A DNA stretch of 64,000 bases from Psilocybe cubensis (taxonomy: Eukaryota). This document shows, piece after piece, positions 11,856 to 63,768 of the stretch (its first letter is position 1; every line of letters starts with the position of its first letter). The notes beneath the pieces were generated by a model. That model saw nothing but the letters and a program-made list of their open reading frames with translations. It did not search any database and was not told the origin of the DNA. The stretch is from the NCBI GenBank assembly GCA_017499595.2, contig CM038998.1, forward strand, positions 3,658,001 through 3,722,000, written 5' to 3'. Both the position numbers and the translations under genes were made by a program.

Positions 11856-11914
11856 TCCGTTTATGAAAACAAATAGAGTCCCACCTTATGGCGCGCGCAC
11901 CACTTGAGGGGAAG

Positions 11915-18311: not shown

Positions 18312-18374
18312 CTCCCCCCTGTTCTGACAAGTCTCCAGAATAAAGAAAAATAAAGCAAAACAGAGAAAGAAAGA

Positions 18375-21267: not shown

Positions 21268-21787
21268 ATGACTTCTGATCCCCAAATCACTCCATTGAAC
21301 TCAACCAACTACAACACCTGGGCAGGCCAGATGACCGCCTATCTCCAGTCTAAAGGGATATGGCGCATTGTCAGCGGTGCTAGAGCACAGCCAACGCTCT
21401 CAGACAAGCCTACTGCTCAGGAGGAAGCTTTGCTTGAAACCTACTTTGAGCAGAGAGACAAAGCATGTGGTTTGATCTATCTCAGTTTGGAGAATGATCA
21501 GAGGGTTCATGTGGAAGCCATCAAGGATGATCCTATCAAGATGTGGGATGCCCTCGCCGCTGTACATCAGCAAAAGCGCCCTGGCAACCGCTTTAATGCA
21601 TATGATGATCTGTTCTCCATCCGAAAGGAGGAAGGTGAAAACCTTCAAACCCTGATCAATAGAGTTGAGCAAGCCATATTGCTAATTCAGCAGCTTCGCC
21701 CTAAGGGGTTTGATCTGGCTAAGCTTGATGAAGAGCTTGCTTCGCTTGCTCTGGTCAGGGCACTCCCAGAAGAGTACAGTTCATTTG
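21268..21787 (+). pseudogene. gag: Copia C1 gag N-terminal part (interrupted by C2)
   Basis: Matches the N-terminus of the 1382-aa ORF up to PEEYSSF. Confidence 0.95.
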
Positions 21788-24700
21788 TGTTGAAGCAGGC
21801 GAGCTCTGGGCAGTGTGAGCCACTCGGCGACCTAGTTATAGAACGCAGGGCGCAGGAATAAGCGAGCACGAAGCGTCTGAAGTCCGAAGTGAGTAACTGG
21901 ATGAATTGAGCAAAGTGCTAACAAACTAACCTGAAGTCCGAAGTGAGTAACTGGGGACTTCAGAATGTAAACTAGAGTGACTATATACTGTGTAGACTCA
22001 AGTACTCTGGTCTACCTAGGTCTACTCTGGTCCGGTCCAGACCAGTCTATGGACTGATAAATATCATGTATCTAGAATGGTCTGGAGAGCAAATGAAGAT
22101 AAGAAGAAAGTAATCTAATCTGATAAGATAGCAAAGTGAGGGAGACATAGAGAGCAGTTTTAACACTCCCCCCTGTTCTGACAAGTCTCCAGAACAAAGA
22201 AAAATAAAGCAAAACAGAGAAAGAAAGATTAAAGTTTGAGACCCATTTTATCTCTACAAAAGTCCACTTTAGGAGGTGAGAGGGGTTTGGTAAGAATATC
22301 AGCAGCTTGCTGATCAGTAGGAATATAAGAAGGAGAAATCTTTCCAACACCAACAGCATCCCTAAGCCAATAATAGCGCAAATCAAGGTGCTTCATCCGT
22401 CCATGGTGCTCTGGATTCTTGGAAACACTAATAGATGACTGGTTGTCCATATGCAGCACAGAGGGCTCAGTGACTGTGTAGCCAAACTCCTCAAGGATAT
22501 TGCGCATCCACACAATTTCCTTGGCTGCCTCCACCGCAGCAATGTACTCTGCCTCAGTAGTAGACAGAGTTACAACAGTTTGGAGTTTGCTTGCCCAGCC
22601 AATAGCACCTCCAGCTAGAACGGTCAAATAACCACTCGTAGAGCGTCCAGTATCTACACAATCACCATGTGCAGCATCAGTGTAGGTGACAAAGTTATCA
22701 TGGCCCACAGCGCCAGAATAAGTCAACTTGTAATCCAGAGTGCCTCTGAGGTAGCGGAACAAATGTTTAATTGCAGCCCAATGCTTAGGCCCAGGATTAG
22801 AGTTGAAGCGTGCCAGATAGGACACAGTAAAAGCAATGTCAGGACGGGTCATGGTGGCTAGATACTGCAAGGAGCCAACTGCATTGAGGTAAGGAACATT
22901 TCGCATAAATTCCACCTCATCTCCATTCTGAGGTCCATCTGCCTTGGACAGAACAGTGCCCACAGCCATAGGTGTTTTGACCGGATTAGAATCAGTCATG
23001 CCATATGTATCAAGCATATCAAGGATATACTGACGCTGATGCAAGGAAATGGTTTTAGCAGCCATATCTCGCTTAATGGCAACACCAAGTAAATACTGTG
23101 TAGGACCCAGATCACGGAGTTCAAAACGCGCAGCTAGCTGCTTAACAGCTCTATCTATGGCAGCGTCCGATTTGGAGGCAAAGGTAATGTCATCAATGTA
23201 AATGGGAACAATAATCTTCACATCTCCATCTGAATAGATGTAGACAGAGCGATCTGATTCTATACGCTTGAACCCCATATCTGACAATGCCTCATGCAAC
23301 TTGAGGTTCCATTGACGTGCAGACTGCTTAAGACCATAGAGCGACTTTTTGAGTTTCAAAACCATGTTAGGACCACCTTGGTGAAATCCTTCAGGTTGTA
23401 ACATGTAAATCTCCTCGTCAAGGTCACCTTTAGTGAAAGCAGCTGTAATATCAACAGAGCGCAACTTCAAGTCTCCAATGGCGGCCAGAGCCACAATCAA
23501 GCGGAAAGTAGCAGGGCGGAAAGTAGGAGCAAAGACCTCATGGTAATCAATGCCAGGGCGCTGACTGTAGCCCTTGGCGACGATACGAGCCTTGTAGCGC
23601 TCTATACTGCCATCTGCATTTCGCTTGATTTTAAAGACCCAACCACAGCCAATTGCCTTTTGACCCGGAGGGAGCTCAACTCGCTCCCAAGTTTGATTGT
23701 GCTGCAACAGATTGAATTCTGTGTTAGCAGCCTCTTCCCACATGTGCGCATCAGGCGCTTTCATTGCCTGTTTGAATGTGCGCGGATCTGCGCTTGAAAC
23801 AAGCCCAGCAAACTCCACCTCTTCAAATCCAGGATCATTGGCTTCAGGTGGTTCAGGATCATGTGAGACCTTCCACCATTCACCAGGCTGCTTAGGAACG
23901 CGAGTAGTGCGTCTCAACGTTGCAGGATCAACTGGAGCACGCTGGCGGCGTGCAGGCTTAGGAGGAGGTGCAGGAACGGCCTCAGGCTGTGGCGGTTCAG
24001 CTGGCTGTTCAGGAGGCGCAATAGGCACTTCTGGCTCAATGACAGGACTTCGAGTAGAGTCATCCTCATCATCATCAAAATTGAAGCCATTAGAGTCCCC
24101 CCCTGAATTGGGAGGTGGTGCACTTGCAGAAGAAGTGGGAAGAAGGTCAAACTTTGGCATAGGGCCAGTGGACACCCCAGGGAAGCACCTTTCGTCGAAA
24201 TCAGCTCTCTCAGAGATAATGAACCTTTTGGTGACTGGGTTGTAAAACTCCCAGCCCTTGTACCCAGTAGGATACCCAACAAAGATACACTTCTCTATAT
24301 GAGGCTGCAACGATTTGCGCTTATCTCCCTGAACATAAACATATGCAAGGCAACCCCAAACCCTCAAATGACTAACATCAGGTTTGCGCTTGTTCCAGCT
24401 TTCATACGGAGTCTTGTCCGGTAGAGGAGCTGTAGGAACACGATTCCATACATGCATGTATGCTGCAACACAGCGACCCCAAAACGAAGGTGGAACACGA
24501 GCCTCATTGAGCATGGAAGTAACATGTTCTGCCATGGTGCGATTTGCACGCTCTGCAACTCCGTTCTGTTGTGGGCGATTTCGCGTTGTATGACGACGCT
24601 CAATGCCACACTGGTCAGTGAATTTGATGAAAGCATTTGACATGTATTCACCAGCTTTGTCATCCTGCAGTGCTTTGATCTTAAAGCCTAATTTGTTCTC

Positions 24701-27158: not shown

Positions 27159-29063
27159 ATTTGCATCCTCACTTCTCCTTTTGGACAAGTTGGACAAGGC
27201 TACAATTCATCAAGCCTTTGTCACAGAGGACATACAGCGACGTCGCCGCGCTTCGGAGTTGCCTGCACTTGCCACCGCGTTCCAGACCGCTCCAGCCCCT
27301 TCTGCATCCAAGTCCAAGTGCGCATTTTGTGATATGACCAATCATGCAATGGACAAGTGTCACAAGTTCATTGCTGCGCAAAAGGATGTGAAGGAGCGTG
27401 TCAAAGCGGCTCGCAAAGGCAATAGAGCGCACAAGGCCTCAGAGGCATCCAGTGAGGAAAAAGAGTCCAAGGACATGGAATTTGCTGGAAATGCAAGTGC
27501 TCTTAATACCGATGTTCCCTCTTCCATTTCACCCCAAACTAATGACGATTGGATTGCAGACACAGGGGCGACTTCTCATATGACGCCCCATCGCAATTGG
27601 GTTAGAAATTACACCCCCCTTCGCATTCCAATCCGATTAGCAGATGAACGAGTTATTTATTCTGCAGGGGTGGGCACTGTGTTCTTTGAACCAGTTGTAA
27701 ATGGAATAAAGTCAAGAGGCGTCGAGTTAACTAGAGTTTTACATGTACCAGATCTCCGAAACAATCTACTGTCTGTTCTATACCTCACAAAGCACAAAGG
27801 CTTCAAAATCACCATTGATGCTAATCTGATGGAGTTTTATCGCAAAGGAGCTTGTCTCTTCTCTGCAGATGTTAGTACATCAAACTGCGCTTTATTGAAC
27901 GGTTATACAGTTCCTATTTCGGAATCTGCCTTCATTTCCTCCAATTCCACTCTACCCCTTGATATCAGTCTCTGGCATCGTCGCTTTGCTCATCATAGCT
28001 ACACTGACATCCAGAAGATGATTAGAGAGGGTATGGTCACCGGACTCAAGCTGAATTCACAGCAACAGCCTGACCCCATTTGTGAACCTTGCCTTGCAGG
28101 CAAGATGCATTCCAACCCATTTCCTTCTTCACCCAGCATGTCAGATGTTCCGCTTGCGCTTATCTTCTCAGATCTGAAAGGTCCTATCTCGCCCCCTACT
28201 CCTGAAGGCTATCGCTACTGGATAACCTTTATTGATGACCATACAAAGAGTAGAGCTGCTGTGCTTCTTAAGCGCAAAAGCGATGCATTCAGTGCGTTTC
28301 AAACGTACAAAGCATGGGCTGAGAACAAATTAGGCTTTAAGATCAAAGCACTGCAGGATGACAAAGCTGGTGAATACATGTCAAATGCTTTCATCAAATT
28401 CACTGACCAGTGTGGCATTGAGCGTCGTCATACAACGCGAAATCGCCCACAACAGAACGGAGTTGCAGAGCGTGCAAATCGCACCATGGCAGAACATGTT
28501 ACTTCCATGCTCAATGAGGCTCGTGTTCCACCTTCGTTTTGGGGTCGCTGTGTTGCAGCATACATGCATGTATGGAATCGTGTTCCTACAGCTCCTCTAC
28601 CGGACAAGACTCCGTATGAAAGCTGGAACAAGCGCAAACCTGATGTTAGTCATTTGAGGGTTTGGGGTTGCCTTGCATATGTTTATGTTGAAGCAGGCGA
28701 GCTCTGGGCAGTGTGAGCCACTCGGCGACCTAGTTATAGAACGCAGGGCGCAGGAATAAGCGAGCACGAAGCGTCTGAAGTCCGAAGTGAGTAACTGGAT
28801 GAATTGAGCAAAGTGCTAACAAACTAACCTGAAGTCCGAAGTGAGTAACTGGGGACTTCAGAATGTAAACTAGAGTGACTATATACTGTGTAGACTCAAG
28901 TACTCTGGTCTACCTAGGTCTACTCTGGTCCGGTCCAGACCAGTCTATGGACTGATAAATATCATGTATCTAGAATGGTCTGGAGAGCAAATGAAGATAA
29001 GAAGAAAGTAATCTAATCTGATAAGATAGCAAAGTGAGGGAGACATAGAGAGCAGTTTTAACA
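27159..29063 (+). repeat. 1905-bp tandem duplication unit: C1 gag-integrase segment (27159-28685) plus an extra minus-strand LTR (28686-29063)
   Basis: 27159-28685 repeats at 29064-30590. The extra LTR is flanked by GTTTA on the left and ATTTG on the right. Confidence 0.9.
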
Positions 29064-32000
29064 ATTTGCATCCTCACTTCTCCTTTTGGACAAGTTGGAC
29101 AAGGCTACAATTCATCAAGCCTTTGTCACAGAGGACATACAGCGACGTCGCCGCGCTTCGGAGTTGCCTGCACTTGCCACCGCGTTCCAGACCGCTCCAG
29201 CCCCTTCTGCATCCAAGTCCAAGTGCGCATTTTGTGATATGACCAATCATGCAATGGACAAGTGTCACAAGTTCATTGCTGCGCAAAAGGATGTGAAGGA
29301 GCGTGTCAAAGCGGCTCGCAAAGGCAATAGAGCGCACAAGGCCTCAGAGGCATCCAGTGAGGAAAAAGAGTCCAAGGACATGGAATTTGCTGGAAATGCA
29401 AGTGCTCTTAATACCGATGTTCCCTCTTCCATTTCACCCCAAACTAATGACGATTGGATTGCAGACACAGGGGCGACTTCTCATATGACGCCCCATCGCA
29501 ATTGGGTTAGAAATTACACCCCCCTTCGCATTCCAATCCGATTAGCAGATGAACGAGTTATTTATTCTGCAGGGGTGGGCACTGTGTTCTTTGAACCAGT
29601 TGTAAATGGAATAAAGTCAAGAGGCGTCGAGTTAACTAGAGTTTTACATGTACCAGATCTCCGAAACAATCTACTGTCTGTTCTATACCTCACAAAGCAC
29701 AAAGGCTTCAAAATCACCATTGATGCTAATCTGATGGAGTTTTATCGCAAAGGAGCTTGTCTCTTCTCTGCAGATGTTAGTACATCAAACTGCGCTTTAT
29801 TGAACGGTTATACAGTTCCTATTTCGGAATCTGCCTTCATTTCCTCCAATTCCACTCTACCCCTTGATATCAGTCTCTGGCATCGTCGCTTTGCTCATCA
29901 TAGCTACACTGACATCCAGAAGATGATTAGAGAGGGTATGGTCACCGGACTCAAGCTGAATTCACAGCAACAGCCTGACCCCATTTGTGAACCTTGCCTT
30001 GCAGGCAAGATGCATTCCAACCCATTTCCTTCTTCACCCAGCATGTCAGATGTTCCGCTTGCGCTTATCTTCTCAGATCTGAAAGGTCCTATCTCGCCCC
30101 CTACTCCTGAAGGCTATCGCTACTGGATAACCTTTATTGATGACCATACAAAGAGTAGAGCTGCTGTGCTTCTTAAGCGCAAAAGCGATGCATTCAGTGC
30201 GTTTCAAACGTACAAAGCATGGGCTGAGAACAAATTAGGCTTTAAGATCAAAGCACTGCAGGATGACAAAGCTGGTGAATACATGTCAAATGCTTTCATC
30301 AAATTCACTGACCAGTGTGGCATTGAGCGTCGTCATACAACGCGAAATCGCCCACAACAGAACGGAGTTGCAGAGCGTGCAAATCGCACCATGGCAGAAC
30401 ATGTTACTTCCATGCTCAATGAGGCTCGTGTTCCACCTTCGTTTTGGGGTCGCTGTGTTGCAGCATACATGCATGTATGGAATCGTGTTCCTACAGCTCC
30501 TCTACCGGACAAGACTCCGTATGAAAGCTGGAACAAGCGCAAACCTGATGTTAGTCATTTGAGGGTTTGGGGTTGCCTTGCATATGTTTATGTTCAGGGA
30601 GATAAGCGCAAATCGTTGCAGCCTCATATAGAGAAGTGTATCTTTGTTGGGTATCCTACTGGGTACAAGGGCTGGGAGTTTTACAACCCAGTCACCAAAA
30701 GGTTCATTATCTCTGAGAGAGCTGATTTCGACGAAAGGTGCTTCCCTGGGGTGTCCACTGGCCCTATGCCAAAGTTTGACCTTCTTCCCACTTCTTCTGC
30801 AAGTGCACCACCTCCCAATTCAGGGGGGGACTCTAATGGCTTCAATTTTGATGATGATGAGGATGACTCTACTCGAAGTCCTGTCATTGAGCCAGAAGTG
30901 CCTATTGCGCCTCCTGAACAGCCAGCTGAACCGCCACAGCCTGAGGCCGTTCCTGCACCTCCTCCTAAGCCTGCACGCCGCCAGCGTGCTCCAGTTGATC
31001 CTGCAACGTTGAGACGCACTACTCGCGTTCCTAAGCAGCCTGGTGAATGGTGGAAGGTCTCACATGATCCTGAACCACCTGAAGCCAATGATCCTGGATT
31101 TGAAGAGGTGGAGTTTGCTGGGCTTGTTTCAAGCGCAGATCCGCGCACATTCAAACAGGCAATGAAAGCGCCTGATGCGCACATGTGGGAAGAGGCTGCT
31201 AACACAGAATTCAATCTGTTGCAGCACAATCAAACTTGGGAGCGAGTTGAGCTCCCTCCGGGTCAAAAGGCAATTGGCTGTGGTTGGGTCTTTAAAATCA
31301 AGCGAAATGCAGATGGCAGTATAGAGCGCTACAAGGCTCGTATTGTTGCCAAGGGCTACAGTCAGCGCCCTGGCATTGATTACCATGAGGTCTTTGCTCC
31401 TACTTTCCGCCCTGCTACTTTCCGCTTGATTGTGGCTCTGGCCGCCATTGGAGACTTGAAGTTGCGCTCTGTTGATATTACAGCTGCTTTCACTAAAGGT
31501 GACCTTGACGAGGAGATTTACATGTTACAACCTGAAGGATTTCACCAAGGTGGTCCTAACATGGTTTTGAAACTCAAAAAGTCGCTCTATGGTCTTAAGC
31601 AGTCTGCACGTCAATGGAACCTCAAGTTGCATGAGGCATTGTCAGATATGGGGTTCAAGCGTATAGAATCAGATCGCTCTGTCTACATCTATTCAGATGG
31701 AGATGTGAAGATTATTGTTCCCATTTACATTGATGACATTACCTTTGCCTCCAAATCGGACGCTGCCATAGATAGAGCTGTTAAGCAGCTAGCTGCGCGT
31801 TTTGAACTCCGTGATCTGGGTCCTACACAGTATTTACTTGGTGTTGCCATTAAGCGAGATATGGCTGCTAAAACCATTTCCTTGCATCAGCGTCAGTATA
31901 TCCTTGATATGCTTGATACATATGGCATGACTGATTCTAATCCGGTCAAAACACCTATGGCTGTGGGCACTGTTCTGTCCAAGGCAGATGGACCTCAGAA

Positions 32001-32697
32001 TGGAGATGAGGTGGAATTTATGCGAAATGTTCCTTACCTCAATGCAGTTGGCTCCTTGCAGTATCTAGCCACCATGACCCGTCCTGACATTGCTTTTACT
32101 GTGTCCTATCTGGCACGCTTCAACTCCAATCCTGGGCCTAAGCATTGGGCTGCAATTAAACATTTGTTCCGCTACCTCAGAGGCACTCTGGATTACAAGT
32201 TGACTTATTCTGGCGCTGTGGGCCATGATAACTTTGTCACCTACACTGATGCTGCACATGGTGATTGTGTAGATACTGGACGCTCTACGAGTGGTTATTT
32301 GACCGTTCTAGCTGGAGGTGCTATTGGCTGGGCAAGCAAACTCCAAACTGTTGTAACTCTGTCTACTACTGAGGCAGAGTACATTGCTGCGGTGGAGGCA
32401 GCCAAGGAAATTGTGTGGATGCGCAATATCCTTGAGGAGTTTGGCTACACAGTCACTGAGCCCTCTGTGCTGCATATGGACAACCAGTCATCTATTAGTG
32501 TTTCCAAGAATCCAGAGCACCATGGACGGATGAAGCACCTTGATTTGCGCTATTATTGGCTTAGGGATGCTGTTGGTGTTGGAAAGATTTCTCCTTCTTA
32601 TATTCCTACTGATCAGCAAGCTGCTGATATTCTTACCAAACCCCTCTCACCTCCTAAAGTGGACTTTTGTAGAGATAAAATGGGTCTCAAACTTTAA
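29064..32697 (+). pseudogene. gag-pol: Copia C1 remainder of gag-pol (open 1203-aa frame lacking the N-terminus)
   Basis: ORF 29086-32697 matches C2 from LDKLDKAT to the stop. Confidence 0.95.
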
Positions 32698-32760
32698 TCT
32701 TTCTTTCTCTGTTTTGCTTTATTTTTCTTTGTTCTGGAGACTTGTCAGAACAGGGGGGAG

Positions 32761-33138
32761 TGTTAAAACTGCTCTCTATGTCTCCCTCACTTTGCTATCT
32801 TATCAGATTAGATTACTTTCTTCTTATCTTCATTTGCTCTCCAGACCATTCTAGATACATGATATTTATCAGTCCATAGACTGGTCTGGACCGGACCAGA
32901 GTAGACCTAGGTAGACCAGAGTACTTGAGTCTACACAGTATATAGTCACTCTAGTTTACATTCTGAAGTCCCCAGTTACTCACTTCGGACTTCAGGTTAG
33001 TTTGTTAGCACTTTGCTCAATTCATCCAGTTACTCACTTCGGACTTCAGACGCTTCGTGCTCGCTTATTCCTGCGCCCTGCGTTCTATAACTAGGTCGCC
33101 GAGTGGCTCACACTGCCCAGAGCTCGCCTGCTTCAACA
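32761..33138 (+). repeat. Copia C1 3' LTR
   Basis: Preceded by PPT CAGGGGGGAG and followed by TSD TAAAC. Confidence 0.96.
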
Positions 33139-35168
33139 TAAACATATGCAAGGCAACCCCAAACCCTCAAATGACTAACATCAGGTTTGCGCTTGTTCCA
33201 GCTTTCATACGGAGTCTTGTCCGGTAGAGGAGCTGTAGGACAACGATTCCATATATGCATGTATGCTGCAACACAGCGACCCCAAAACGAAGGTGGAATA
33301 CGAGCCTCATTGAGCATGGAAGTAACATGTTCTGCCATGGTGCGATTTGCACGCTCTGCAACTCTGTTCTGTTGTGGGCGATTTCGCGTTGTATGACAAC
33401 GCTCAATGCCACACTGGTCAGTGAATTTGATGAAAGCATTTGACATGTATTCACCAGCTTTGTCATCCTGCAGCGCTTTGATCTTAAAGCCTAATTTGTT
33501 CTCAGCCCATGCTTTGTACGTTTGGAACGCACTGAATGCATCGCTTTTGCGTTTAAGAAGCACAGCAGCTCTACTCTTTGTATGGTCATCAATAAAGGTT
33601 ATCCAGTAGCAATAGCCTTCAGGAGTAGGGGGCGAGATAGGACCTTTCAGATCTGAGAAGATAAGCGCAAGCGGAACATCTGACATGCTGGGTGAAGAAG
33701 GAAATGGGTTGGAATGCATCTTGCCTGCAAGGCAAGGTTCACAAATGGGGTCAGGCTGTTGCTGTGAATTCAGCTTGAGTCCGGTGACCATACCCTCTCT
33801 AATCATCTTCTGGATGTCAGTGTAGCTATGATGAGCAAAGCGACGATGCCAGAGACTGATATCAAGGGGTAGAGTGGAATTGGAGGAAATGAAGGCAGAC
33901 TCTGAAATAGGAACTGTATAACCGTTCAATAAAGCGCAGTTTGATGTACTAACATCTGCAGAGAAGAGACAAGCTCCTTTGCGATGAAACTCCATCAGAT
34001 TAGCATCAATGGTGATTTTGAAGCCTTTGTGCTTTGTGAGGTATAGAACAGACAGTAGATTGTTTCGGAGATCTGGTACATGTAAAACTCTAGTTAACTC
34101 GACGCCTCTTGACTTTATTCCATTTACAACTGGTTCAAAGAACACAGTGCTACCCCTGCAGAATAAATAACTCGTTCATCTGCTAATCGGATTGGAATGC
34201 GAAGGGGGGTATAATTTCTAACCCAATTGCGATGGGGCGTCATATGAGAAGTTGCCCCTGTGTCTGCAATCCAATCGTCATTAGTTTGGGGTGAAATGGA
34301 AGAGGGAACATCGGTATTAAGAGCACTTGCATTTCCAGCAAATTCCATGTCCTTGGACTCTTTTTCCTTACTGGATGCCTCTGAGGCCTTGTGCGCTCTA
34401 TTGCCTTTGCGAGCCGCTTTGACACGCTCCTTTGCATCCTTTTGCGCAGCAATAAACTTGTGACACTTGTCTATTGCATGGTTGGTCATATCACAAAATG
34501 CGCACTTGGGCTTGGATGCAAAAGGGGCTGGAGCAGTCTGGAATGCAGCGGCAAATATAGACAACTCCAAAGCGCGGCGATGTTGCTGTATGTCCTCTGT
34601 GACAAAGGCTTGATGCATTGTAGCCTTGTCCAACTTGTCCAAAAGAAGAAGTGAGGATGCAAATGAACTGTACTCTTCTAGGAGTGCCCTGACTAGAGCA
34701 AGCAAAGCAAGCTCTTTATCAGGCTTAGCCAAATCAAACCCCTTGGTGAAAAGCTTAGCAACATGGCTTGCTCAATTCTATTGATCAGGATTTGAAGGTT
34801 TTTATCTTCCTCCAACAGATCATTATATGCATTAAAGCGGTTGCCAGGGCGCTTCTGCTAGTGTAAAGTGGTGAGGCTATTCCACATCATGATAGAATCA
34901 TTCATCCAGGATTGATGGTTTCCACATGAACCCTCTGATCATTCTCCAAACTGAAATAGATTAAACCACATGCTTTGTCTCTCTGCTCAAAGTAGGTTTC
35001 AAAAAAAGCTTCCTCCTAAGCAGTGGGCTTGTCTGAGAGCATTGGCTGTACTTTAGCACCGCTGACAATGCACCATATCCCTTTAGACTGGAGATAGGCG
35101 GTCATCTGGCCTGCCCATGTGTTGTAGTTGGTTGTATTCAAAGGAGTAATTTGGGAATCAGAAGTCAT
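33139..35168 (-). pseudogene. gag-pol: Copia C0 gag, protease and integrase N-terminal part (frameshifted)
   Basis: ORFs 33108-34145, 34124-34732 and 35016-35309 are diverged versions of C2. Confidence 0.92.
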
Positions 35169-35568
35169 TATTGTGAATTGCAAAGGAACACATAAGTAGA
35201 TGGATACAAGTGTTGGTAGTAATGTGTACAAATGTGTAATAATGTGTGGAAACAAACTAGGCATTACTCGGAGCTTGGGGTGTGATGTGAGCGCAAGTTG
35301 AAAAAACAAAGTTAAACTAGCCTAATTTAAAAGGTGTACTTTTAACTAGAAATAACTCAGGGATTAGGCAACGGGGGCCCGCTCAACTGAGGTTAACAAG
35401 TCGCGTAAGGCGTGCTCGTTCAACCCTACTAGCAGCGGCAATGTATGGCCGGGCCTGGTAGAGGATAAAAAGCAAAAAAGACTAAAATGACCGTTTTGTG
35501 AAAACTATGCAGAAAGCAACTTGGTTCGCAAAACACGGAATTGGAGTGCTTAGAGCACGGGGCCCATA

Positions 35569-35911
35569 TGTTGAAGCAGGCAAGCTCGGGGCAGTGTGAG
35601 CTACTCGGAGACCTAGTTATAGAACGTAGGGCGCAGGGATAAGCGAGCACGAAGCGTCTGAAGTCCGAAGTGAGTAACTAAGTGAATTGAGCAAAGTGCT
35701 AACAAACTAACCTGAAGTCCGAAGTGAGTAACTGGGGACTTCAGGATGTAAACTAGAGTGACTATATACTATGTAGACTCAAGTACTCTGGTCTACCTAG
35801 GTCTACTTTGGTCCGGTCCAGACCAGTCTATGGACTGATAAATATCATGTGTCTAGAATGGTCTGGAGAGCAAATGAAGATAAGAAGAAAGTAATCTAAT
35901 CTGATAAGATA
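35569..35911 (-). repeat. Copia C0 5' LTR (truncated)
   Basis: LTR sequence stops at CTGATAAGATA. The adjacent PBS has lost 3 nt. Confidence 0.9.
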
Positions 35912-48610: not shown

Positions 48611-48749
48611 TGTTAGTATATTTTATTCATCTTCATCTTTTCTTCTTTGCTTTTCATTTCACTCATTATCTGGTTATTATCTTATCACCACTCTTCATCC
48701 AAAAGCCTCTATTCTTATTCAATTTAAGTAGTCATACTGCTGACCTTGT

Positions 48750-50338
48750 TGTTAGGAATTGACTTAAGTCAAGAAAGAAGAATGCCCAAAGACTAAGTTG
48801 ATATTGAAGCTGGGGTCTGACTACTGACCCTAGGACCCTATATATATATGGAAACCAGAGTAATTATTTCCCGGACCAGAGTACTCAACATACAACAACT
48901 ATCAATAGATGAAACAGGAGAACAATAAACATGGGACCAAACACAAAGATAGAACAAGGCATGACAGCATGGGACCGTAACAGATAACAATAATGGATAG
49001 GGGTGGCACCAATACGTACCCTGACATCACCTCCCCTCTAAAGGTTGGTGTCCCAACGACCTGGTCTTTACCATGGACGGTTTGCACCAAAGACACGAGA
49101 CGGTCCACCGCCACAATGCGCAATCTGAATTCCCTTTCTAGGCTGAACAGGCCCGGGGTAAGAGTAACCGTCAGAGTGTTGCTGCGGAGCCCTGAGAGCG
49201 TCCACCTCCATAGGCAAACCAGAGGCGAGCGACAAGGATGGGCTGGAGCAAGTGTCAACAGCCATAGGAGTGGGCAAGTGCGGAGAAGCAGTCCTGGAAC
49301 GGGGTGTCTGCATACTAGTTGGGGTAGGTAGAGCTCGAGATTGGAGTAGGAGAAGGAGGTTCAATGACAAGGGTAAGAGGGGCGGCAGTGGGCGCAGGAG
49401 GCTGTTTGGGCTTCTTGGACCTAGGGTTGCAGATGCAACAATGGGCAATCCGCTTGCCAATAGCAGAGAGAGCATTACCAACTTCACAAGCAGTATCTCT
49501 GATAGTGACAGCACGCAAACCAGAGGTGACAACAGGGGAGACCGAGATCTTTGCATGCAAGATGTCGTGGATTTGGTGTAAGCTAGTTCCCGCGTGCCCT
49601 ATGATGTGGCCAGCCTGTTTGTCTGCAATAGACAGGGTAGCAACAATCTTCTCAAGGGCGGCTTTGGTAGTAGTAGAGCAGATGGATTGAGTGTGCGGGG
49701 GCCCTGTAGTAGGGGTAGAGGTAAGTGCAGCCAGGTGTTCCTTCCTAGAGGTGCGTCAAGCGCGAGGTGCGCAAGCAGAGGAAGTGGGAGCGGCAGGCAG
49801 TTTAGGTAGGGAGGCTGCAAGGCGTTTGAGTTTAGACTCAATGGCAGACAGTCGGTCGTCAATCTTTTTATTGGCATCAAACTGGACTTGCTGCGCCCTA
49901 AAGAGGAAGGTGAAACGGTCCTCAAGAGACATTGTCATAAACCCATCGTAAGGCAAAGGAGGGTTGGCCATGGAGTATAGTAGGTGGGGGCAAGGTAGAG
50001 TAGAGTAGACAAGTGCTGCAGTGGATAGAGTATCATGGCAATGTTGGGTAGCTTCAATATGCTGTTAGGAATTGACTTAAGTCAAGAGAGAAGAATGCCC
50101 AAAGACCAAGTTAATATCAAAGCTGAGGTCTGACTACTGATCCCAGGACCCTATACATATATGGAAACCAGAGTAACTACTTCCCGGACCAGAGTACTCA
50201 ACATACAACAACTATCAATAGATGAAACAGGAGAATGATAGATGTGGGACCAAACACAAAGATAGAATAAGGCATGATAGCGTGGGACCGTAACAGATAA
50301 CAATAACGGATAGGGTGGCACCAATACATACCCTGACA
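48750..50338 (-). mobile_element. Small non-autonomous LTR retroelement (1589 bp) carrying a KH-domain ORF
   Basis: LTRs at 48750-49026 and 50063-50338 (about 21 transitions and 1 indel), TSD CTTGT/CTTAT, PPT TAGAGGGGAGGTGA, self-complementary PBS at 50050-50060. No RT, INT or PR. Confidence 0.93.
49068..49971 (-). pseudogene. KH-domain protein with coiled-coil N-terminus, Pro/Ser/Thr linkers and PMEVD tail (one stop at 49756-49758, one frameshift near 49325)
   Basis: In-frame translation IVATLSIADKQAGHIIGHAGTSLHQIHDILHAKISVSPVVTSGLRAVTIRDTACEVGNALSAIGKRI (about 49447-49647) fits the type-I KH pattern, with the IIGxxG loop at 49588-49599. Confidence 0.8.
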
Positions 50339-50760
50339 CTTATACAACACATCACCTTTGTAGTCAGTAGATTAACTTCTTTGCACCTCTTGTAGCTATG
50401 AGATTCTTCACTTATACTGGACTTTTTTCTTCCTCGTACCTCAGCCTTTTTCCTCTTTCTGCTGAGGTACATTTATTTGCTTTATTGTTATTTTACAGAG
50501 GCTGATTTAACTTACAGACTGATTTATATACTGTATACTTAAGGTCCACAATATAGCTTTTTTTCTCTTCCTGCTGAGACTGATTTGTATACTGTATACT
50601 TAAGGTTCCTTCAGGTTATGGGCCCTGATTGCGCCTAAAAACAAAAGACACAATATACTCAATAATACAGAAGGCTTACTAGATCATTTTTATAATATTT
50701 TGATACTCCAGATTCACATATCTCAAATTCAATCAACCCAGAAATCTCTGCATCAAAATA

Positions 50761-57378: not shown

Positions 57379-57827
57379 TGTCAGGGCAACACTATAATCA
57401 GTGTGACAAGGCCACCAACAAAGATTAAGCAAGAGAGAGAGAGAGAGAGCAGAGGGAGAGTAAGAGAGCAAGAGAGAATAAGAGAGTGAGAGAGATTCAA
57501 TGGTTCTAAGAGATCATACCAATGATAGTGGATATCCTAAGAGATTGAAGCTGAAGCTACAGCTACCTACAAGTCCAGTATTTATACTCTACAGCTATTC
57601 TAGAATATTCCCTACATTACATTATAAAGGAAGGTTAAAGAATAAAAGTGACATCATATAGAAAAAGGATGAGTAAGACTAGGAATCATATAGAATTTAC
57701 TAGAAAGAAGTGGAGCAAGAAGGCTGTGATGAAAGAAATAAACTATCTAATCAGATAATTAATAAGATAATGAAAGGATAAGATAATTCTGTGAAGATAA
57801 AGAGGGGAAACTGGAGAAACCCTGACA
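57379..57827 (-). repeat. Chromovirus F 3' LTR
   Basis: TGTCAGGG...CCCTGACA inverted termini, with a GA-rich tract inside. Confidence 0.97.
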
Positions 57828-60800
57828 TCACCCCCTCTCTAAGGCACATTTTCCACAATGTGCACATGGATGGGTTAGTTTAGAGGGTTTAAGAAGAGGA
57901 GGAGGTTCAGTAAAGTTAATAATAGGAGTAAAAGAAAGTCTATCAAAGGTCACAGCAGAAATCTTTCTAGGTGCTGAAGGATGTTTGGTATGGAAGTCCT
58001 TGATAGCCTTAGAAGCATTTTTCAAATGCTCTGCAGGCTCCCAAGTGCATTCTTCATTAGGATAGTTCTTCCACTTGACCAAATATTGAAGTTTGTTTCT
58101 AAAAAGTCTGCTGTCCTTGATAAATTCAACTTCCCACTCAGGATTTTCTCCTTGAATGACAGGAGGTGGTCTAGAAGGAGGCTTTCTTCCTACAATATCT
58201 GGGTGATAAGGTAGAAGTTTAACCACATTGAACACTGGATGGATTTTCATGGTAGATGGCAGCTTAAGCTCATAGGCATTAGGGCTAATAACTTTGGTAA
58301 TTTTGTAAGGCCTATATCTTTTATCATCCAATTTCTTGGAGGGCCTATCAGTTTTGAGGTCCTTGCCATCCAACCATACCAAATCCCCAACTTTGTACTG
58401 AGTTAGAGTACCTCTGTGTCTATTATAGAATTTAGCCATATCATCAGCAGCTTTTCTAAGTGCAGACTCTGCTTCTTTCCTAGCTTCTTCCATATTTTTC
58501 ACAAAGGTATCCACAGTGTCCATTTTACTATCTCTAAGGGGTTCAGTGCCCATTCTGGGATGTCTGCCATTATTGAGCATGAATGGTGTCTGCCTGGTTG
58601 AAGCCTGAACTCTATTGTTATAAGAGAATTCAGCTAGAGCTAACCATTCAACCCAATCATCTTGTCTATGGTTTATAAAGAGTCTAAGATACTGCTCAAT
58701 TTCTTGGTTAACTCTTTCAGTCTGACCATCAGTTTGGGGATGGTAGGCTATAGATGAGGCTGTCTGGATACCAAGTATTGAGTTGAGTTCTTTCATAAAC
58801 CTTAAGACAAACTGTGGACCTCTATCACACAGAATTTTAATGGGTAAGCCATGGTGTTTCCAGACATAATCTCTGTATAGTCTGGCTGTCCCTTCAGAAG
58901 TGACTTCATCTGTAGTAGGGATAATGTGGATCATTTTACTAAGTCTATCCACAACCACCATAATGGCATTATACCCTTGACATTCTGATAACCCCATAAT
59001 AAAATCCACAGAGATGCATTGCCAGACATCAGAGGGAATCTCAGTAGGAATTAAAAGGCCAAGAGGTTTGGCTGGAAAGGTTTTGGTTCTGTTACATCTA
59101 TCACAACCTCTGGTATAGGCTGCAATAAAATGTGACATTCCTGGCCACCAATAATTCCTAGAGACTAGCTCAATTGTCTTCCATTTCCCTGGATGTCCAG
59201 CAATGAAGGCATCATGGTGCAGTTCCACAATCTTTCTTCTAAGATCTTTGTCCTTGGGAACATACACCTTCCCCCTGTAGAGAATAAGGCCTTGTTCTTC
59301 TGACCATTCCTGTCCTTCAATCTTCTTGGTAGAAGATTTCTTGAGCTCCTGAACTGCCTTGACCACCTTTTCATCCATCTCCTTAGCTTCTCTAATCTTC
59401 TTAAGAAGATCATTTTCTGCACCAGTAATGGTAGCATGACCCTGCTTGAGAGCCTGGATTTTAAAGTAGGAAGGTTTGAGGAGAACTACATTTTGGTTAT
59501 CATTCTCTCCCTTTTTATGATCTGGTCTCCTAGACAAAGCATCTGGCTTGAGAGATCTTTTACCAGGCCTATGATAAAGAGTAAAATCAAATCTGGACAG
59601 GAAGAGTGACCATCTGGCTTGCCTTCTGCTGAGCTTTTGGGCAACCATAAAGTACTCTAAGTTTTTGTGGTCTGTCCAAATCTCAAAGGAATGTTGGGTT
59701 CCTTCAAGATAATGTCTCCATTCATCTAGTGCTCTGATAATAGCCAGCATCTCTTTGTCATGGATTTCATAATTCCTTTCTACTTCAGATAGACTCTTAG
59801 ACATAAAGGATACAGGATGCCATTTCCCATCTGATCCTTCCTGAGATAAAACAGCCCCAGTAGCATAATCTGAACTGTCTGCTTTAACTTTATATGGCTT
59901 GTTATCATCAGGGAAAATCAAGACAGGTGAAGAAGTGACTTTCTTCTTTAACTGGTCAAAGGCTTCCTGCTGTCTAAGACTCCATCTCCAGACTGTTCCT
60001 TTCTTTGTCAATTCATGAAGGGGCTTAGCAATGTCTGCAAAATCCTCTATGAACCTTCTATAAAAATTAACAAATCCCAAGAATGATTGGACATCCTTGA
60101 CATTTTCAGGTTCAGGCCATTTAGAAACTCCCTCTACCTTGACAGGATCCATCTCAATCCTGCCTTGTGAAATGATTAGTCCAAGATATTCAATTTTTTC
60201 CTTTTCAAATTCACATTTCTCTGCTTTAAGGTAGAGTTTATTCTGTTCTAGGATTTGCAGAACTTGCTTGACTACCTCTCTATGATGATCAAGAGTCTCA
60301 GTGAAAATTAAAATGTCATCCATGTAGACAATGACAACATTTCCATCAATGAGCTCAATAAAGATATCATTCATTATAGTTTGGAAGGTAGCAGGACTAT
60401 TGGTTAAACCAAAGAACATGACCAATGGTTCAAACAGCCCTCTATTGGTTCTAAAGGCTGCTTTCCATTCATCTCCCTTTTTGATTCTGACATTGTTAAA
60501 TCCCCACCTAACATCAAGTTTGGTGAAGTATTTGGCTTTGCTGAGTTTGGTGATAATGTCAGAAATCAATGGAAGGGGGTAGGAGTTCTTGATGGTCATT
60601 TCATTTAGTTTCCTATAGTCCTGGACAAGCCTAAGAGATCCATCCTTCTTCTTGACAAAGAATACAGGGGAGGCCATAGGTGACTTGGAGGGTCTAATCC
60701 TGCCAGACTTCAGATTTTCCTCTAAAAAGGCATCAAGTTCCTTTTGTTCATTGGGAGAAAGAGGATAAATCTTGGATCTGTAAGGTTCAGAACCAGGTTT

Positions 60801-61601
60801 CAGCTCAATAGCATGATCCCAAGGCTTTCTGTCTGGTAGCCTATCAAAAGATTCCTTTGAAAAAACACCTTTAAACTGATGATAGTGCTTAGGAACAGTT
60901 TCTTCAAAGGTTTTCTTAGGGGAATCAGCTTGCTGATGAGACTCTTCTGCTAATCTTCGAGACATAGTAGAAGTAGCATTAATAGACTGCTTCTGAGGAT
61001 GAAGGTATGAGATAAAAATTCTATCCTCAGGCTCAATCTCAGAATCAGAAGAATCTTCAATAGAATCTTCTTCTTCTTCATCAAATTGAGGGAGTTTCCT
61101 CCTTTTGACTGCAGCTATTCTCTGCCTCTTTCTTCTGGCTCTTTTGGCTTCCATTTGGCAGTCAGAGGGACATCTAATAAACTGGACATCCCCTGTCTTC
61201 CAATCAACATCTGGATTATGGTGCCAAAGCCAAGTATGTCCAATGATAGCAGATTTGTCTCCCAAGTCACAAACAGCAAAGGTGGCCCTTTCTGTATGGT
61301 TTTTGTGTACCATAATTAAGTCTACTTCCTCATGGATAGAGCCACTCTTGTTGAGAGTACCATCAATATTATAGACTGGAATGGCTCTAGGAAGTTTCCT
61401 TGTGTTGAGATTATGATACTTGACAAAACCAGAATGCAGAAAGAGGCCAGTAGCTCCAGAATCAAGCAAAGCATCAACAGATAACCTTTTCTCTGTGTCC
61501 ATTGTCTTTAAGATGACAGACAAATGGGTAGAGGTTTTAGGATTATGGTTGAGGATGTAGATCTTTTCAGGGAAGGTAGAAAGAGAGGAAGAAGAAGACA
61601 T
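57828..61601 (-). CDS. pol: Chromovirus F Pol (PR-RT-RNase H-INT-chromodomain), 1257 aa
   Basis: LLDSGA, YMDDILI, DSSDYATGAVL, HHD..GHPG..CDRC, DRGPQF, QTDGQTER, and chromodomain WEVEFIKDSR..YLVKWKNYPNEECTWEP. Confidence 0.96.
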   Translation of the reverse strand: MSSSSSLSTFPEKIYILNHNPKTSTHLSVILKTMDTEKRLSVDALLDSGATGLFLHSGFVKYHNLNTRKLPRAIPVYNIDGTLNKSGSIHEEVDLIMVHKNHTERATFAVCDLGDKSAIIGHTWLWHHNPDVDWKTGDVQFIRCPSDCQMEAKRARRKRQRIAAVKRRKLPQFDEEEEDSIEDSSDSEIEPEDRIFISYLHPQKQSINATSTMSRRLAEESHQQADSPKKTFEETVPKHYHQFKGVFSKESFDRLPDRKPWDHAIELKPGSEPYRSKIYPLSPNEQKELDAFLEENLKSGRIRPSKSPMASPVFFVKKKDGSLRLVQDYRKLNEMTIKNSYPLPLISDIITKLSKAKYFTKLDVRWGFNNVRIKKGDEWKAAFRTNRGLFEPLVMFFGLTNSPATFQTIMNDIFIELIDGNVVIVYMDDILIFTETLDHHREVVKQVLQILEQNKLYLKAEKCEFEKEKIEYLGLIISQGRIEMDPVKVEGVSKWPEPENVKDVQSFLGFVNFYRRFIEDFADIAKPLHELTKKGTVWRWSLRQQEAFDQLKKKVTSSPVLIFPDDNKPYKVKADSSDYATGAVLSQEGSDGKWHPVSFMSKSLSEVERNYEIHDKEMLAIIRALDEWRHYLEGTQHSFEIWTDHKNLEYFMVAQKLSRRQARWSLFLSRFDFTLYHRPGKRSLKPDALSRRPDHKKGENDNQNVVLLKPSYFKIQALKQGHATITGAENDLLKKIREAKEMDEKVVKAVQELKKSSTKKIEGQEWSEEQGLILYRGKVYVPKDKDLRRKIVELHHDAFIAGHPGKWKTIELVSRNYWWPGMSHFIAAYTRGCDRCNRTKTFPAKPLGLLIPTEIPSDVWQCISVDFIMGLSECQGYNAIMVVVDRLSKMIHIIPTTDEVTSEGTARLYRDYVWKHHGLPIKILCDRGPQFVLRFMKELNSILGIQTASSIAYHPQTDGQTERVNQEIEQYLRLFINHRQDDWVEWLALAEFSYNNRVQASTRQTPFMLNNGRHPRMGTEPLRDSKMDTVDTFVKNMEEARKEAESALRKAADDMAKFYNRHRGTLTQYKVGDLVWLDGKDLKTDRPSKKLDDKRYRPYKITKVISPNAYELKLPSTMKIHPVFNVVKLLPYHPDIVGRKPPSRPPPVIQGENPEWEVEFIKDSRLFRNKLQYLVKWKNYPNEECTWEPAEHLKNASKAIKDFHTKHPSAPRKISAVTFDRLSFTPIINFTEPPPLLKPSKLTHPCAHCGKCALERG

Positions 61602-61705
61602 GATTTCTGCACCAGAATCTGAAGACTGAGGATCAAGTTTGTCAATTTCATTTTCTAGTACATTAAATCTATTCTATTGGGACATGTCTTTCACCAATGG
61701 TGCTT

Positions 61706-62809
61706 CTAAAAATTTTTCTTTTCCTCATCTTTCTGCTCCTTGCCTTCCAAGATTAATTTTCCAAAGTAGTCAGCCAGTTCTTCATGGGTCATAGCATTGA
61801 TGTTAACTGATGACCTGCAGTTTACAGCCTTATGACCAGGCTTTCTGCACTTGAAGCAAACAATTGGCTTAACTGACTTCCATCCAGAGTCAACCTCCAT
61901 GGGAACTATATCTGGTTGCTTTGCCTGAGCACCAAAGGTCCTAGAGCTGCTATTGGAAAAGACTGGAGGATTTGGAGTAGGCTTAGGAACAGCCTTGGGA
62001 GTTGGGGCTTTAAGGAAGGGAGAAGAGGAGGAGGAGGAAAGAGACTTGGTAAAGGCCTCACTCTGTCTCCACTGCCTATCTAGCCTAGTACTCCATTTAA
62101 TCCATCCATCCAAGGTTTTGGGCATGTCAGGAACATAGTAGACTGCATTCCTGAGATTTTCATTTAGCCCAGCCTTGAATTGATCTACCAAAGCAGCATC
62201 ATTATACCCAGTATCTGAGATCAGAGCCCTGAAGCTAGCAACATACTCATCAGCAGTCTGTCTGCCTTGCTTGAGCATGTGCATTTTATGCTTAGCTGTG
62301 TTGGAGGGGTCTGGATCTGCAAACACTTCCCTAAATTCATAAACAAAGTCAGCCCAAAGACCTTCTTGGGACTGAGCATTGTCTATTACTTTAGTCTTCT
62401 CATATGCCCACTTCCCAGCAGTACCTCCTTTCATATGAGATAGAGCACAAATAACTTTCTGAAAGTCATCTGTAATCCCTTTCCCATAGAAATATAATTT
62501 AAGCTGACTGAGGAAGTTTTCTGCCTTTTCCATAGAACCATCAAATGGATCTGGAGGTGAGACTTTAATGGCAGAGTGTGAACAGGAAGGGGCAACATGA
62601 GGGGTAGGGAAAGAGTGAATATCTAGAGCAGCAGGTGGTGGTGGTGGTGGTGGTGATGGTGACTGACTGACTGGTTGCTGAGGGTATGGTGGAGTGGATA
62701 ATGACTGCTGCTGCTGTCTAAGAAAATTCAACTCTTGGGTAAGGAGCTGGACCTGATGCATGAGCTCTTCCACAGAAGGAGTGGTGGGAGGCAATTGGGA
62801 GGGGTCCAT
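61706..62809 (-). CDS. gag: Chromovirus F Gag, 367 aa
   Basis: PDPFDG, LKQGRQTADEY..F, PMEVD and CFKCRKPGHKAVNC knuckle. Confidence 0.95.
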   Translation of the reverse strand: MDPSQLPPTTPSVEELMHQVQLLTQELNFLRQQQQSLSTPPYPQQPVSQSPSPPPPPPPAALDIHSFPTPHVAPSCSHSAIKVSPPDPFDGSMEKAENFLSQLKLYFYGKGITDDFQKVICALSHMKGGTAGKWAYEKTKVIDNAQSQEGLWADFVYEFREVFADPDPSNTAKHKMHMLKQGRQTADEYVASFRALISDTGYNDAALVDQFKAGLNENLRNAVYYVPDMPKTLDGWIKWSTRLDRQWRQSEAFTKSLSSSSSSPFLKAPTPKAVPKPTPNPPVFSNSSSRTFGAQAKQPDIVPMEVDSGWKSVKPIVCFKCRKPGHKAVNCRSSVNINAMTHEELADYFGKLILEGKEQKDEEKKNF

Positions 62810-63306
62810 GTCTATGGGTAGGGGTAGGTAGACTCTCTGATGTGTGTGTGGGAGAAGCTATCTACTGAAAGTGCCCTTGAAACTATACTAAGTATTCTAA
62901 AAAAATATCTATCTACTGGATATCCAGTTGTCACACCACTCAGGGCTCTAAACCTAGGATCACAGGGTTGCTGGATATTTCCTAGACCACCAAAAACAGA
63001 ACACTAGTAGGACTGTGTCTGCCCCAATAGTTGGTATCCCTATCTACTAAGCTCACACACAGCACACAACAGAGAGTAGGAAAGATGATAAGCCAAAGGT
63101 CTTGAGGAAAGGTCTTGAGGAAAGGTTTTGAGGAGGATGTTGAAGATTGGTGGAGATGTAGAGATTGGTAAGAAGATTGGTGAAGAGGTTGATGAAGAGG
63201 TTGGTGGGTTGGAAGTGGAGGAAGAAGGTTGAGGTAATGGTGTTGAAGAGGTTGAAGAGGTGAAGAGTTTGGTGTTGAAAGAGAGATGGTGGAGTTGTCT
63301 TGAGAG

Positions 63307-63317
63307 AGCTTCAATCT
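63307..63317 (-). promoter_or_regulatory. Self-priming PBS AGATTGAAGCT
   Basis: Complementary to LTR 63483-63493, which begins 34 nt downstream of the start of TATAAATA (63520-63527, minus). Confidence 0.8.
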
Positions 63318-63319
63318 TC

Positions 63320-63768
63320 TGTCAGGGCAACACTATAATCAGTGTGACAAGGCCACCAACAAAGATTAAGCAAGAGAGAGAGAGAGAGAGCAGAGGGAGA
63401 GTAAGAGAGCAAGAGAGAATAAGAGAGTGAGAGAGATTCAATGGTTCTAAGAGATCACACCAATGATAGTGGATATCCTAAGAGATTGAAGCTGAAGCTA
63501 CAGCTACCTACAAGTCCAGTATTTATACTCTACAGCTATTCTAGAATATTCCCTACATTACATCATAAAGGAAGGTTAAAGAATAAAAGTGACATCATAT
63601 AGAAAAAGGATGAGTAAGACTAGGAATCATATAGAATTTACTAGAAAGAAGTGGAGCAAGAAGGCTGTGATGAAAGAAATAAACTATCTAATCAGATAAT
63701 TGATAAGATAATGAAAGGATAAGATAATTCTGTGAAGATAAAGAGGGGAAACTGGAGAAACCCTGACA
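63320..63768 (-). repeat. Chromovirus F 5' LTR
   Basis: Direct repeat of 57379-57827. Confidence 0.97.

Follow-up and report, generated by a model that had tools for sequence, protein, structure and literature searches.

A short LTR retroelement of Psilocybe cubensis that encodes a KH-domain protein and probably borrows its copying enzymes

How might a retroelement of 1589 bp with both long terminal repeats (LTRs) and none of the usual enzymes propagate, and what might its only protein do for it? These questions are raised by the minus strand of positions 48750-50338 in a 64,000-nucleotide stretch of Psilocybe cubensis DNA (assembly GCA_017499595.2, contig CM038998.1, positions 3,658,001 to 3,722,000 of the forward strand), all of which is called the window below. 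The segment is a complete LTR retroelement, here called the mini element, and its single open reading frame (ORF) encodes a protein with a K Homology (KH) domain. We consider it likely that this copy is a decayed member of an Agaricomycete family of non-autonomous LTR retrotransposons, mobilised by a helper, and that the KH protein aids the RNA of its own element; the copying enzymes are probably borrowed from a larger retroelement.

Structure of the element and its KH protein

The mini element has two long direct terminal repeats with TG...CA termini, a primer-binding site (PBS) 2 nt past the 5' LTR and a polypurine tract (PPT) against the 3' LTR, and it is flanked by a target-site duplication for which the empty site can be demonstrated (Table 1). 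The insertion target was a Ty1/copia element, whose flanking ORF contains Retrotran_gag_2 and Pol_BBD. Two uninterrupted copia paralogues of the target, at window positions 5740-5810 and 470-540, each have a single CTTGT; because these are two independent empty sites, the insertion is real and produced a 5-bp duplication, one copy of which later underwent a transition. Structurally, the mini element is an LTR retrotransposon in every defining feature, and the complete LTR-PBS-ORF-PPT-LTR unit with target-site duplication described in an earlier note on this DNA was found part for part. When the window was searched with the mini element by blastn and tblastx, neither a second copy nor a protein-level relative of the internal region was detected.

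In Pfam searches KH_1 (PF00013) was the sole domain of the ORF, with no Gag, protease, reverse transcriptase (RT) or integrase. The score was 23-24.1 bits in the window copy, relative to a cut-off of 21.5, and 35.7-42.1 bits in intact relatives, the intact paralogue type represented by P0003 (see below) giving 35.7 bits. An AlphaFold2 model, built on the family alignment with P0003 as the first sequence, contained a beta-alpha-alpha-beta-beta-alpha unit at residues 108-179 with a per-residue confidence (pLDDT) of 83-92; the order assigned by DSSP was E108-116, H117-124, H126-138, E141-144, E152-160 and H161-179, and the loop joining the two helices has the GxxG form, with GRAG in intact copies and GHAG in the window copy. 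The best Foldseek match of the folded unit was PCBP2 KH3, with a template-modelling (TM) score of 0.91 and a root-mean-square deviation of 1.1 A; hnRNP K KH3 was matched as well, and the family profile matched PCBP1 KH3 (E 5.4e-8). By profile and by predicted fold, the ORF carries a type-I KH domain of the PCBP/hnRNP K kind, and a spurious KH match was considered and rejected. The earlier note had proposed exactly such a fold, with its GxxG loop, after reverting transitions in a read-through translation; the profile and structure searches that it suggested both gave matches, and the reverted residues agree with those found naturally in the intact paralogues. Two Basidiomycota KH clusters in a protein atlas, with scores of 0.84 and 0.79, fell under the threshold of 0.9 and were not used. 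Given its family, the KH protein would be expected to bind single-stranded RNA or DNA.

In the same model, a disordered linker joined the long N-terminal helix to the KH unit, and the tail was disordered from about residue 188. Prediction of a two-copy complex of the N-terminal 62 residues scored 0.02 (mark 0.32), which argues neither for nor against oligomers. C-terminal to the KH unit come an Arg/Lys patch, a Pro/Ser-rich stretch and then a conserved (S/T)PM-x-(V/I)-D motif; the PMAVD and PMEVD motifs that the earlier note had read in this region were both located in the disordered tail. Gag, capsid and zinc-knuckle profiles had no match in the ORF, either at E ≤ 10 in one search or at E ≤ 0.01 in another.

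Copies, relatives and selection

A protein search returned 12 relatives of the KH protein, among them P0002, which is the gene model of the window locus itself and assigns the window to P. cubensis; the introns predicted in it bypass both the stop and the frame change of the decayed ORF. The 90% cluster of P0003 had 14 members, all from P. cubensis, and 11 of these were the full 298 aa; these 11 intact paralogues were 94-99% identical to one another and lay on contigs of 7 distinct sizes. Further gene models were broken or chimeric, P0013 for example extending into translated LTR sequence. P0009 and P0016 had the C-terminal two thirds of the KH protein joined to unrelated N-termini, of which that of P0009 resembles, by eye, the C-terminal part of an integrase; both are probably annotation chimeras across nested insertions, and they illustrate how members of this family enter annotations as ordinary host genes. 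When raw genomic reads with the same species label (1631.7 million letters read) were placed at 80% likeness, the summed depth was ~350-470 on the internal part and ~900-1000 on the LTRs. For a P. cubensis genome that we take to be ~46 Mb, this corresponds very roughly to a dozen internal copies with ~2 LTRs per copy, in agreement with the count of gene models. The loose ends of reads at the outer LTR edges were diverse (agreement 0.38-0.41), as many insertion sites predict.

Named relatives outside P. cubensis came from Psilocybe cf. subviscida, Agrocybe pediades and Sphaerobolus stellatus. An exhaustive search of representative sequences gave 144 clusters at E ≤ 1e-3 and 43 at E ≤ 1e-10. Most had one matched stretch and a length of 250-400 aa; proteins with 3-5 matched stretches (multi-KH) appeared only from E 5.6e-8 upward, and none of the 144 was longer than 875 aa. 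No fused or longer form was seen at E ≤ 0.001 among 7999 candidates, which as evidence is weak. Of 19 representatives from outside P. cubensis that were looked up, 18 were on contigs of 960-5151 bp, 13 of them within 1.1-1.7 kb, the size expected for a collapsed repeat unit, and the remaining one was on a 396-kb Sphaerobolus contig. Three distant relatives of 759-781 aa (P0068, P0101 and P0128) carry their one KH domain near residues 225-290 and, after it, a low-complexity extension of ~450 aa, the C-terminal ends of which look alike in all three; these proteins may form a distinct, longer branch within the family, or they may be encoded by host genes.

A metagenome scan yielded 18 loci, on unrelated contigs, encoding relatives with 36-70% identity. 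In all 18 an LTR hallmark adjoined the ORF, none had a pol gene, and none was an LTR-free copy. Direct repeats on both sides of the ORF were present in six: L012 is a 1551-bp element with flanking sequence at either side and a complete LTR pair (304-593 and 1564-1854) of 90.4% identity; positions 1-174 of L006 recur at 1332-1505; and in L001, L004, L005 and L009 the contig ends overlap, a pattern that arises when LTR-internal-LTR is collapsed in assembly. A PPT-TGT junction was found in 16 of the 18, ten by a pattern match to the PPT joined to TGT(C/T/A)A and six as a variant seen by eye (L001, L002, L003, L005, L012 and L017). This junction lay directly downstream of the ORF in 14 of the 16; in L004 it does so only through the wrap-around of a collapsed contig, and in L016 it precedes the 5' LTR, as expected of a tandem or collapsed arrangement. 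The ORFs of L008 and L018 leave the contig end, and the upstream LTR segment and PBS are present. Full elements rebuilt from the coordinates were ~1.55-2.0 kb.

Seven of the metagenome loci had open frames, and three pairs of these had unsaturated synonymous divergence. The ratio of nonsynonymous to synonymous substitution rates (dN/dS, NG86) over the whole ORF was 0.35 for L001/L002, 0.42 for L003/L005 and 0.36 for L006/L007; in the KH block (73-74 codons) it was 0.13, 0.00 and 0.10 for the same pairs, and in the arms outside this block 0.21-0.83. As dN/dS was below 1 and lowest in the KH block, the protein, and the KH domain above all, has been kept by selection between element lineages. Of the further checks outlined in the earlier note, those of copy number, LTR flanks and dN/dS gave the outcome anticipated for a selected, LTR-borne family, and none of the conditions that it had named as refuting was found to hold.

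Single insertions decay, as the window copy and L012 illustrate. The window copy is dead: its ORF has a TGA and a frame change, and it carries many C-to-T type transitions. Past the TGA, the frame runs to 49318 and then resumes in another frame. The earlier note had derived the TGA at 49756 from an Arg codon and had proposed one frameshift; P0003 indeed has Arg at that position, and alignment with P0003 placed a single frame change in the region given in Table 1. Relative to P0003, the first 204 residues were 83% identical, and the last 90 (residues 208-297) 78%. The genomic reads depart from the window at 49312-49327, with indels at 49312-49325 and a loose end at 49327 (agreement 0.97). Substitutions between window and reads (window>read) were A>G at 84 and T>C at 67 positions against C>T at 40 and G>A at 35; because most have A or T in the window and G or C in the reads, the window copy is the mutated one. 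Its two LTRs differ by 21 substitutions, all of them transitions with no transversions, plus 1 indel. With G or C taken as ancestral, 12 of the 21 were in CpA, 3 in CpG and 6 in other contexts, a sample too small for naming the mutational process; CpG deamination alone was rejected as the cause. The broken ORF and diverged LTRs of L012 resemble those of the window copy, and these two copies point to a C-to-T hypermutation process acting on repeats. If so, LTR divergence would overestimate the age of an insertion.

Self-priming signals and a candidate helper

The PBS complements a segment of the element's own LTR, not a tRNA, which as a sequence arrangement is the design of Tf1-type self-priming. 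According to PMC4600332, Tf1 and Tj1 each have a PBS that complements the 5' end of their own mRNA, and PMC2864245 gives a general description of the self-priming mechanism. The pairing segment is presumed to be the start of R, since a TATA box lies ~30 nt upstream of it; in the 5' LTR of the window copy, both changed positions of this segment would still pair as G-U in RNA. Among the 18 metagenome loci, in six of which the priming region lies off the contig, an exact PBS complement of at least 10 nt, 0-3 nt past the LTR, was present in eight (L001, L002, L005, L006, L012, L013, L016 and L018), and pairing with 1 mismatch in L008 and L009. The R-start-to-PBS stretches of the window element and eight metagenome elements (9 sequences) were aligned and assayed for covariation. 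Of the cells, 97.9% pair, and 6 of the 11 pairs have changed on both sides in a compensatory manner; the covariation score was reached by 0 of 500 shuffles, and pairing fell to 23-46% when the partner was slid by 1-3 columns. Examples of co-varying primer/PBS pairs are AGCTTTGAAAT/ATTTCAAAGCT, ACCTTGATAT/ATATCAAGGT, ATCTTGATAT/ATATCAAGAT and ACCTTTGAATTT/AAATTCAAAGGT.

Self-primer pairing was also present in the sole intact Ty3/gypsy element of the window, a chromovirus whose Gag has Ty3_capsid, Retrotrans_gag and zf-CCHC and whose Pol has RVT_1, RNase H, rve, SH3_Tf2-1 and Chromo. Its PBS, AGATTGAAGCT at 63307-63317, follows a 2-nt spacer as in the mini element, and its primer pair, AGCTTCAATCT/AGATTGAAGCT, is one position off that of the mini element, with the change compensated in the PBS. 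The 14-nt junction of PPT and LTR (U3), GGTGATGTCAGGGT, occurs twice in the window, once in the mini element and once in the chromovirus (57819-57832), relative to 0.04 matches expected; two matches were obtained in 0 of 100 shuffles. PMEVD recurs at 61889-61903, where it closely precedes the zinc knuckle of the chromovirus Gag, and this was the only meaningful occurrence elsewhere in the six-frame translation of the window. The likeness of cis signals to those of the neighbouring chromovirus, asserted in the earlier note, thus held for the junction, the PBS and the spacer. Its further proposal of a satellite of self-priming chromoviruses was borne out in part, by the absence of gag and pol and by the co-varying self-primer; the identity of the helper is what we infer from the shared signals, and this chromovirus is a plausible helper type.

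Table 1. Positions of the parts of the mini element, its insertion site and the candidate helper in the window
Feature	Position	Strand	Remarks
Target-site duplication, left copy, CTTGT	48745..48749	.	Single CTTGT in empty-site paralogues
3' LTR	48750..49026	-	277 nt; element orientation TGTCAGGGT...CCTAACA
Presumed R start, 3' LTR, AGCTTCAATAT	48801..48811	-	Exact 11-nt complement of PBS
TATA-like run, 3' LTR	48839..48849	-	~28-30 nt upstream of PBS-pairing segment
Polypurine tract, AGAGGGGAGGTGA	49027..49039	-	Directly adjoins 3' LTR
ORF, C-terminal piece in shifted frame	49068..49330	-	Stop 49068-49070; disordered Pro/Ser-rich tail
PMEVD motif	49200..49214	-	In disordered tail
PMAVD motif	49254..49268	-	In disordered tail
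Frame change and small deletion breaking the ORF	49312..49330	-	Between residues 204 and 208; 5-residue gap relative to P0003
KH_1 domain, type I, degraded copy	49459..49638	-	Pfam, AlphaFold2, Foldseek, family profile
In-frame TGA	49756..49758	-	Arg72 at that position in intact paralogues
N-terminal long helix, predicted	49810..49926	-	Residues 16-54 of intact paralogue, pLDDT 85-91
ORF start ATG	49969..49971	-	Frame open from 49971 to TGA
Primer-binding site, ATATTGAAGCT	50050..50060	-	2 nt downstream of 5' LTR; self-priming type
5' LTR	50063..50338	-	276 nt
Presumed R start, 5' LTR, AGCTTTGATAT	50114..50124	-	Two transitions off exact complement
TATA-like run, 5' LTR	~50152-50162	-	Same box as in 3' LTR
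Target-site duplication, right copy, CTTAT	50339..50343	.	One transition relative to CTTGT
Candidate helper, intact Ty3/gypsy chromovirus	57379..63768	-	gag 383 aa, pol 1281 aa, LTRs 99.3% identical

The window is a dense transposon nest, and several features of it stand apart from the two elements above or from the relation between them. One more exact copy of the self-priming PBS core, ATTGAAGCT, lies outside both elements at 17080-17088 (+) and could be chance or a remnant of another self-priming element. At positions 17935-35911, members of a single Ty1/copia family with 378-nt LTRs (RVT_2, rve, Retrotran_gag_2) form an array that is nested or rearranged and includes inverted near-identical segments such as 21784-25862 and 33142-29064 (99.8%). 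The observed/expected (o/e) ratio of CpG is 0.71 in the copia element at 5994-12237, 0.60 in that at 21788-27158 and 0.43 in the whole window. In the chromovirus, which has open gag and pol, it is nevertheless 0.00 at 40.7% GC; a coding-competent element with practically no CpG suggests that methylation or mutation directed at CpG has long been avoided.

Proposed mechanism, alternatives and known systems

We propose that transcription of the mini element would start at the segment AGCTT... of the LTR, directed by the TATA box, and that the first 11 nt of the RNA would fold back on the PBS and be cut off as the primer by the RNase H of the helper. A self-priming chromovirus would supply reverse transcription and integration in trans: the RNA would be reverse-transcribed inside helper particles, and the helper integrase would insert the resulting copy, duplicating 5 bp of the target. 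Translated from the same RNA, the KH protein may bind the element's own C-rich RNA, the sense strand being 33-37% C in four of five elements and 28% in the fifth, relative to 21% in the chromovirus. By doing so it could promote the stability of this RNA, or its competition for helper particles or enzymes, as ORF1p does for LINE (long interspersed nuclear element) RNA, and the Gag-like PMEVD tail might provide a docking or protease site. A more specific form of this proposal, which we regard as possible but doubtful, holds that the family is an old, widespread satellite LTR lineage in Agaricomycetes that has lost gag-pol, in which the KH protein is an ORF1p-like packaging adaptor acting in cis on the C-rich RNA, the PMEVD tail mimics the capsid-nucleocapsid (CA-NC) linker of Gag, and the RNA enters chromovirus particles, there to be copied and inserted through Tf1-style self-priming and the RT and integrase of the helper. 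If true, no earlier parasite of the LTR class would have had a non-Gag protein of its own for RNA recognition.

Several observations weigh against mobilisation by a helper such as this chromovirus and against an RNA-directed role of the KH protein. The choice of helper was made on short cis motifs: no LTR likeness was found beyond them, as blastn of the mini element against the window returned only itself. The chromovirus has 1 CpG in 6390 bp, the mini element a CpG o/e of 0.47, and because their CpG content differs the two have no common mutational history. PMEVD is a match of five residues, noticed post hoc. In L004 and L007, whose 5' regions are on the contig, clean self-primer pairing was not recognised. 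The C-richness follows from coding for Pro, Ser, Thr and Ala and need not mark a binding site. The transcription start and the expression of the mini element are read from sequence only, and contacts of the KH protein with RNA or Gag are ones that we infer. Two sequencing runs presumed to be RNA had no reads on the mini element at 80% likeness, an outcome without bearing on its expression. Finally, the copy counts come from gene models and from a depth estimate that uses an assumed genome size.

The alternatives that deserve most attention accept the element and differ on its protein. In one, mobilisation in trans is as proposed above and the KH protein protects or regulates, as a shield from silencing or decay, in translation control or by damping the helper. 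PCBP and hnRNP K type KH proteins act in mRNA stability and translation control, and domains of this type are the nearest solved relatives of the KH unit; Gag homology is not detectable in the KH protein, and strong purifying selection shows that it has some function without saying which. On the other hand, nothing speaks specifically for such roles, PMEVD is common to the Gag linker of the helper, and the layout of helix plus RNA binding suits a role in a particle or ribonucleoprotein equally or better, so that we hold this reading to be rather unlikely. We give still less credence to a much-altered Gag of the TR-GAG kind, in which the helix and Pro-rich arm and the CA-NC linker of Gag were kept and the place of the capsid core and zinc knuckle was taken, as nucleic-acid-binding module, by a KH domain. 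The two proteins have their parts in a similar order (N-terminal helix, Pro-rich stretch, folded domain, Ser/Pro linker, PMEVD), the pentapeptide is in both, and they align weakly over PPxP(Y/F)DG where the capsid region begins. This alignment, however, was the best that blastp of the KH protein against the chromovirus Gag could offer (E 0.2); hhalign gave a probability of 1.1%, the N-terminal similarity is missing in more distant family members, and the Gag, capsid and zinc-knuckle profiles found nothing in the ORF at the thresholds given above. An altered Gag is therefore improbable.

Two other explanations would place the ORF outside the life of the element. That it is a one-off captured host KH gene, evolving neutrally and with no family, might be suspected from a window copy that is broken and hypermutated and has no second copy in the window; it was rejected as hardly credible, being contradicted by the 11 intact paralogues in the same species, the LTR hallmarks at every metagenome locus, the KH-block dN/dS, and the PBS and LTR that co-vary across lineages. 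Alternatively, a KH family beneficial to the host might ride LTR elements for its amplification, the selection being for the host and not for the element. The gene models are annotated as ordinary proteins, and conservation across lineages is long-term, as this would predict. Against it, the ORF is always accompanied by its own LTR, PBS and PPT, which co-evolve with it; copies are located in transposon nests and decay once inserted; and LTR-free copies numbered 0 among the 18 loci. We consider benefit to the host very improbable. A non-autonomous family mobilised by a helper, with a KH protein that aids its own RNA, is the reading with which we compare known systems below.

The earlier note knew of no description of this architecture, and our full-text literature searches, which lay outside subscription journals, Repbase and supplements, likewise found no published KH-encoding LTR element. 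The family might appear under another name in Repbase or in catalogues of transposable elements, such as the supplements of Psilocybe or Agaricomycete genome papers. An autonomous Ty3/gypsy chromovirus has Gag, protease, RT/RNase H and integrase with a chromodomain, all of which are present in the neighbour at 57379-63768; because it lacks the enzymes, the mini element is not such an element. The same distinction applies to the self-priming Ty3/gypsy elements Tf1 (Schizosaccharomyces pombe) and Tj1 (S. japonicus), as far as the sources cited above describe them: the complementarity of PBS and LTR is the same, and covariation backs a fold-back primer, whereas Tf1 and Tj1 are autonomous (Gag, protease, RT, integrase) and the mini element, whose primer is recognised by its sequence, has none of these proteins. 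The family does provide a natural covariation series for Tf1-type self-priming in basidiomycetes.

At the level of the protein, the best sequence and fold matches are the KH3 domains of PCBP1/2 and hnRNP K, but each cellular protein contains three KH domains and is the product of a single-copy host gene, whereas the mini element family has one KH domain and element-specific arms. Proteins of mushroom genomes seen here under annotations such as 'K Homology domain-containing' or 'hypothetical' are thus transposon genes. LINE-1 ORF1p, with a coiled coil, an RNA recognition motif (RRM) and a C-terminal domain, binds its own RNA in cis. The likeness to it is a functional analogy: both proteins are encoded by a retroelement and combine a long N-terminal helix with a domain for single-stranded RNA and a basic region. 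ORF1p differs in having an RRM and not a KH domain and in belonging to a LINE and not an LTR element, with no homology between the two; the RNA binding of the KH protein is a prediction, and any oligomers of it would be hypothetical.

The current view of non-autonomous LTR retrotransposons has them either devoid of genes (TRIM, LARD) or with gag retained (TR-GAG). The TR-GAG elements of plants, which keep only the gag ORF, resemble the mini element in being short LTR elements with a single ORF and no pol, presumably mobilised in trans by an autonomous relative. The mini element falls outside their definition, as we understand it, because its ORF is not Gag by any profile; it also differs in its fungal host and in self-priming. 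TRIM and LARD, in which the internal region is non-coding, share with it a small LTR-PBS-internal-PPT-LTR structure without enzymes and dependence on a helper; their definition, again as we understand it, does not hold, because the internal region is coding and selected, with an ORF of ~300 aa under purifying selection that is intact at 298 aa in the 11 paralogues. In comparison with these classes, the present family is a parasite that keeps a strongly conserved non-Gag KH protein across divergent fungal lineages, and through it the competition of RNAs for helper particles becomes testable.

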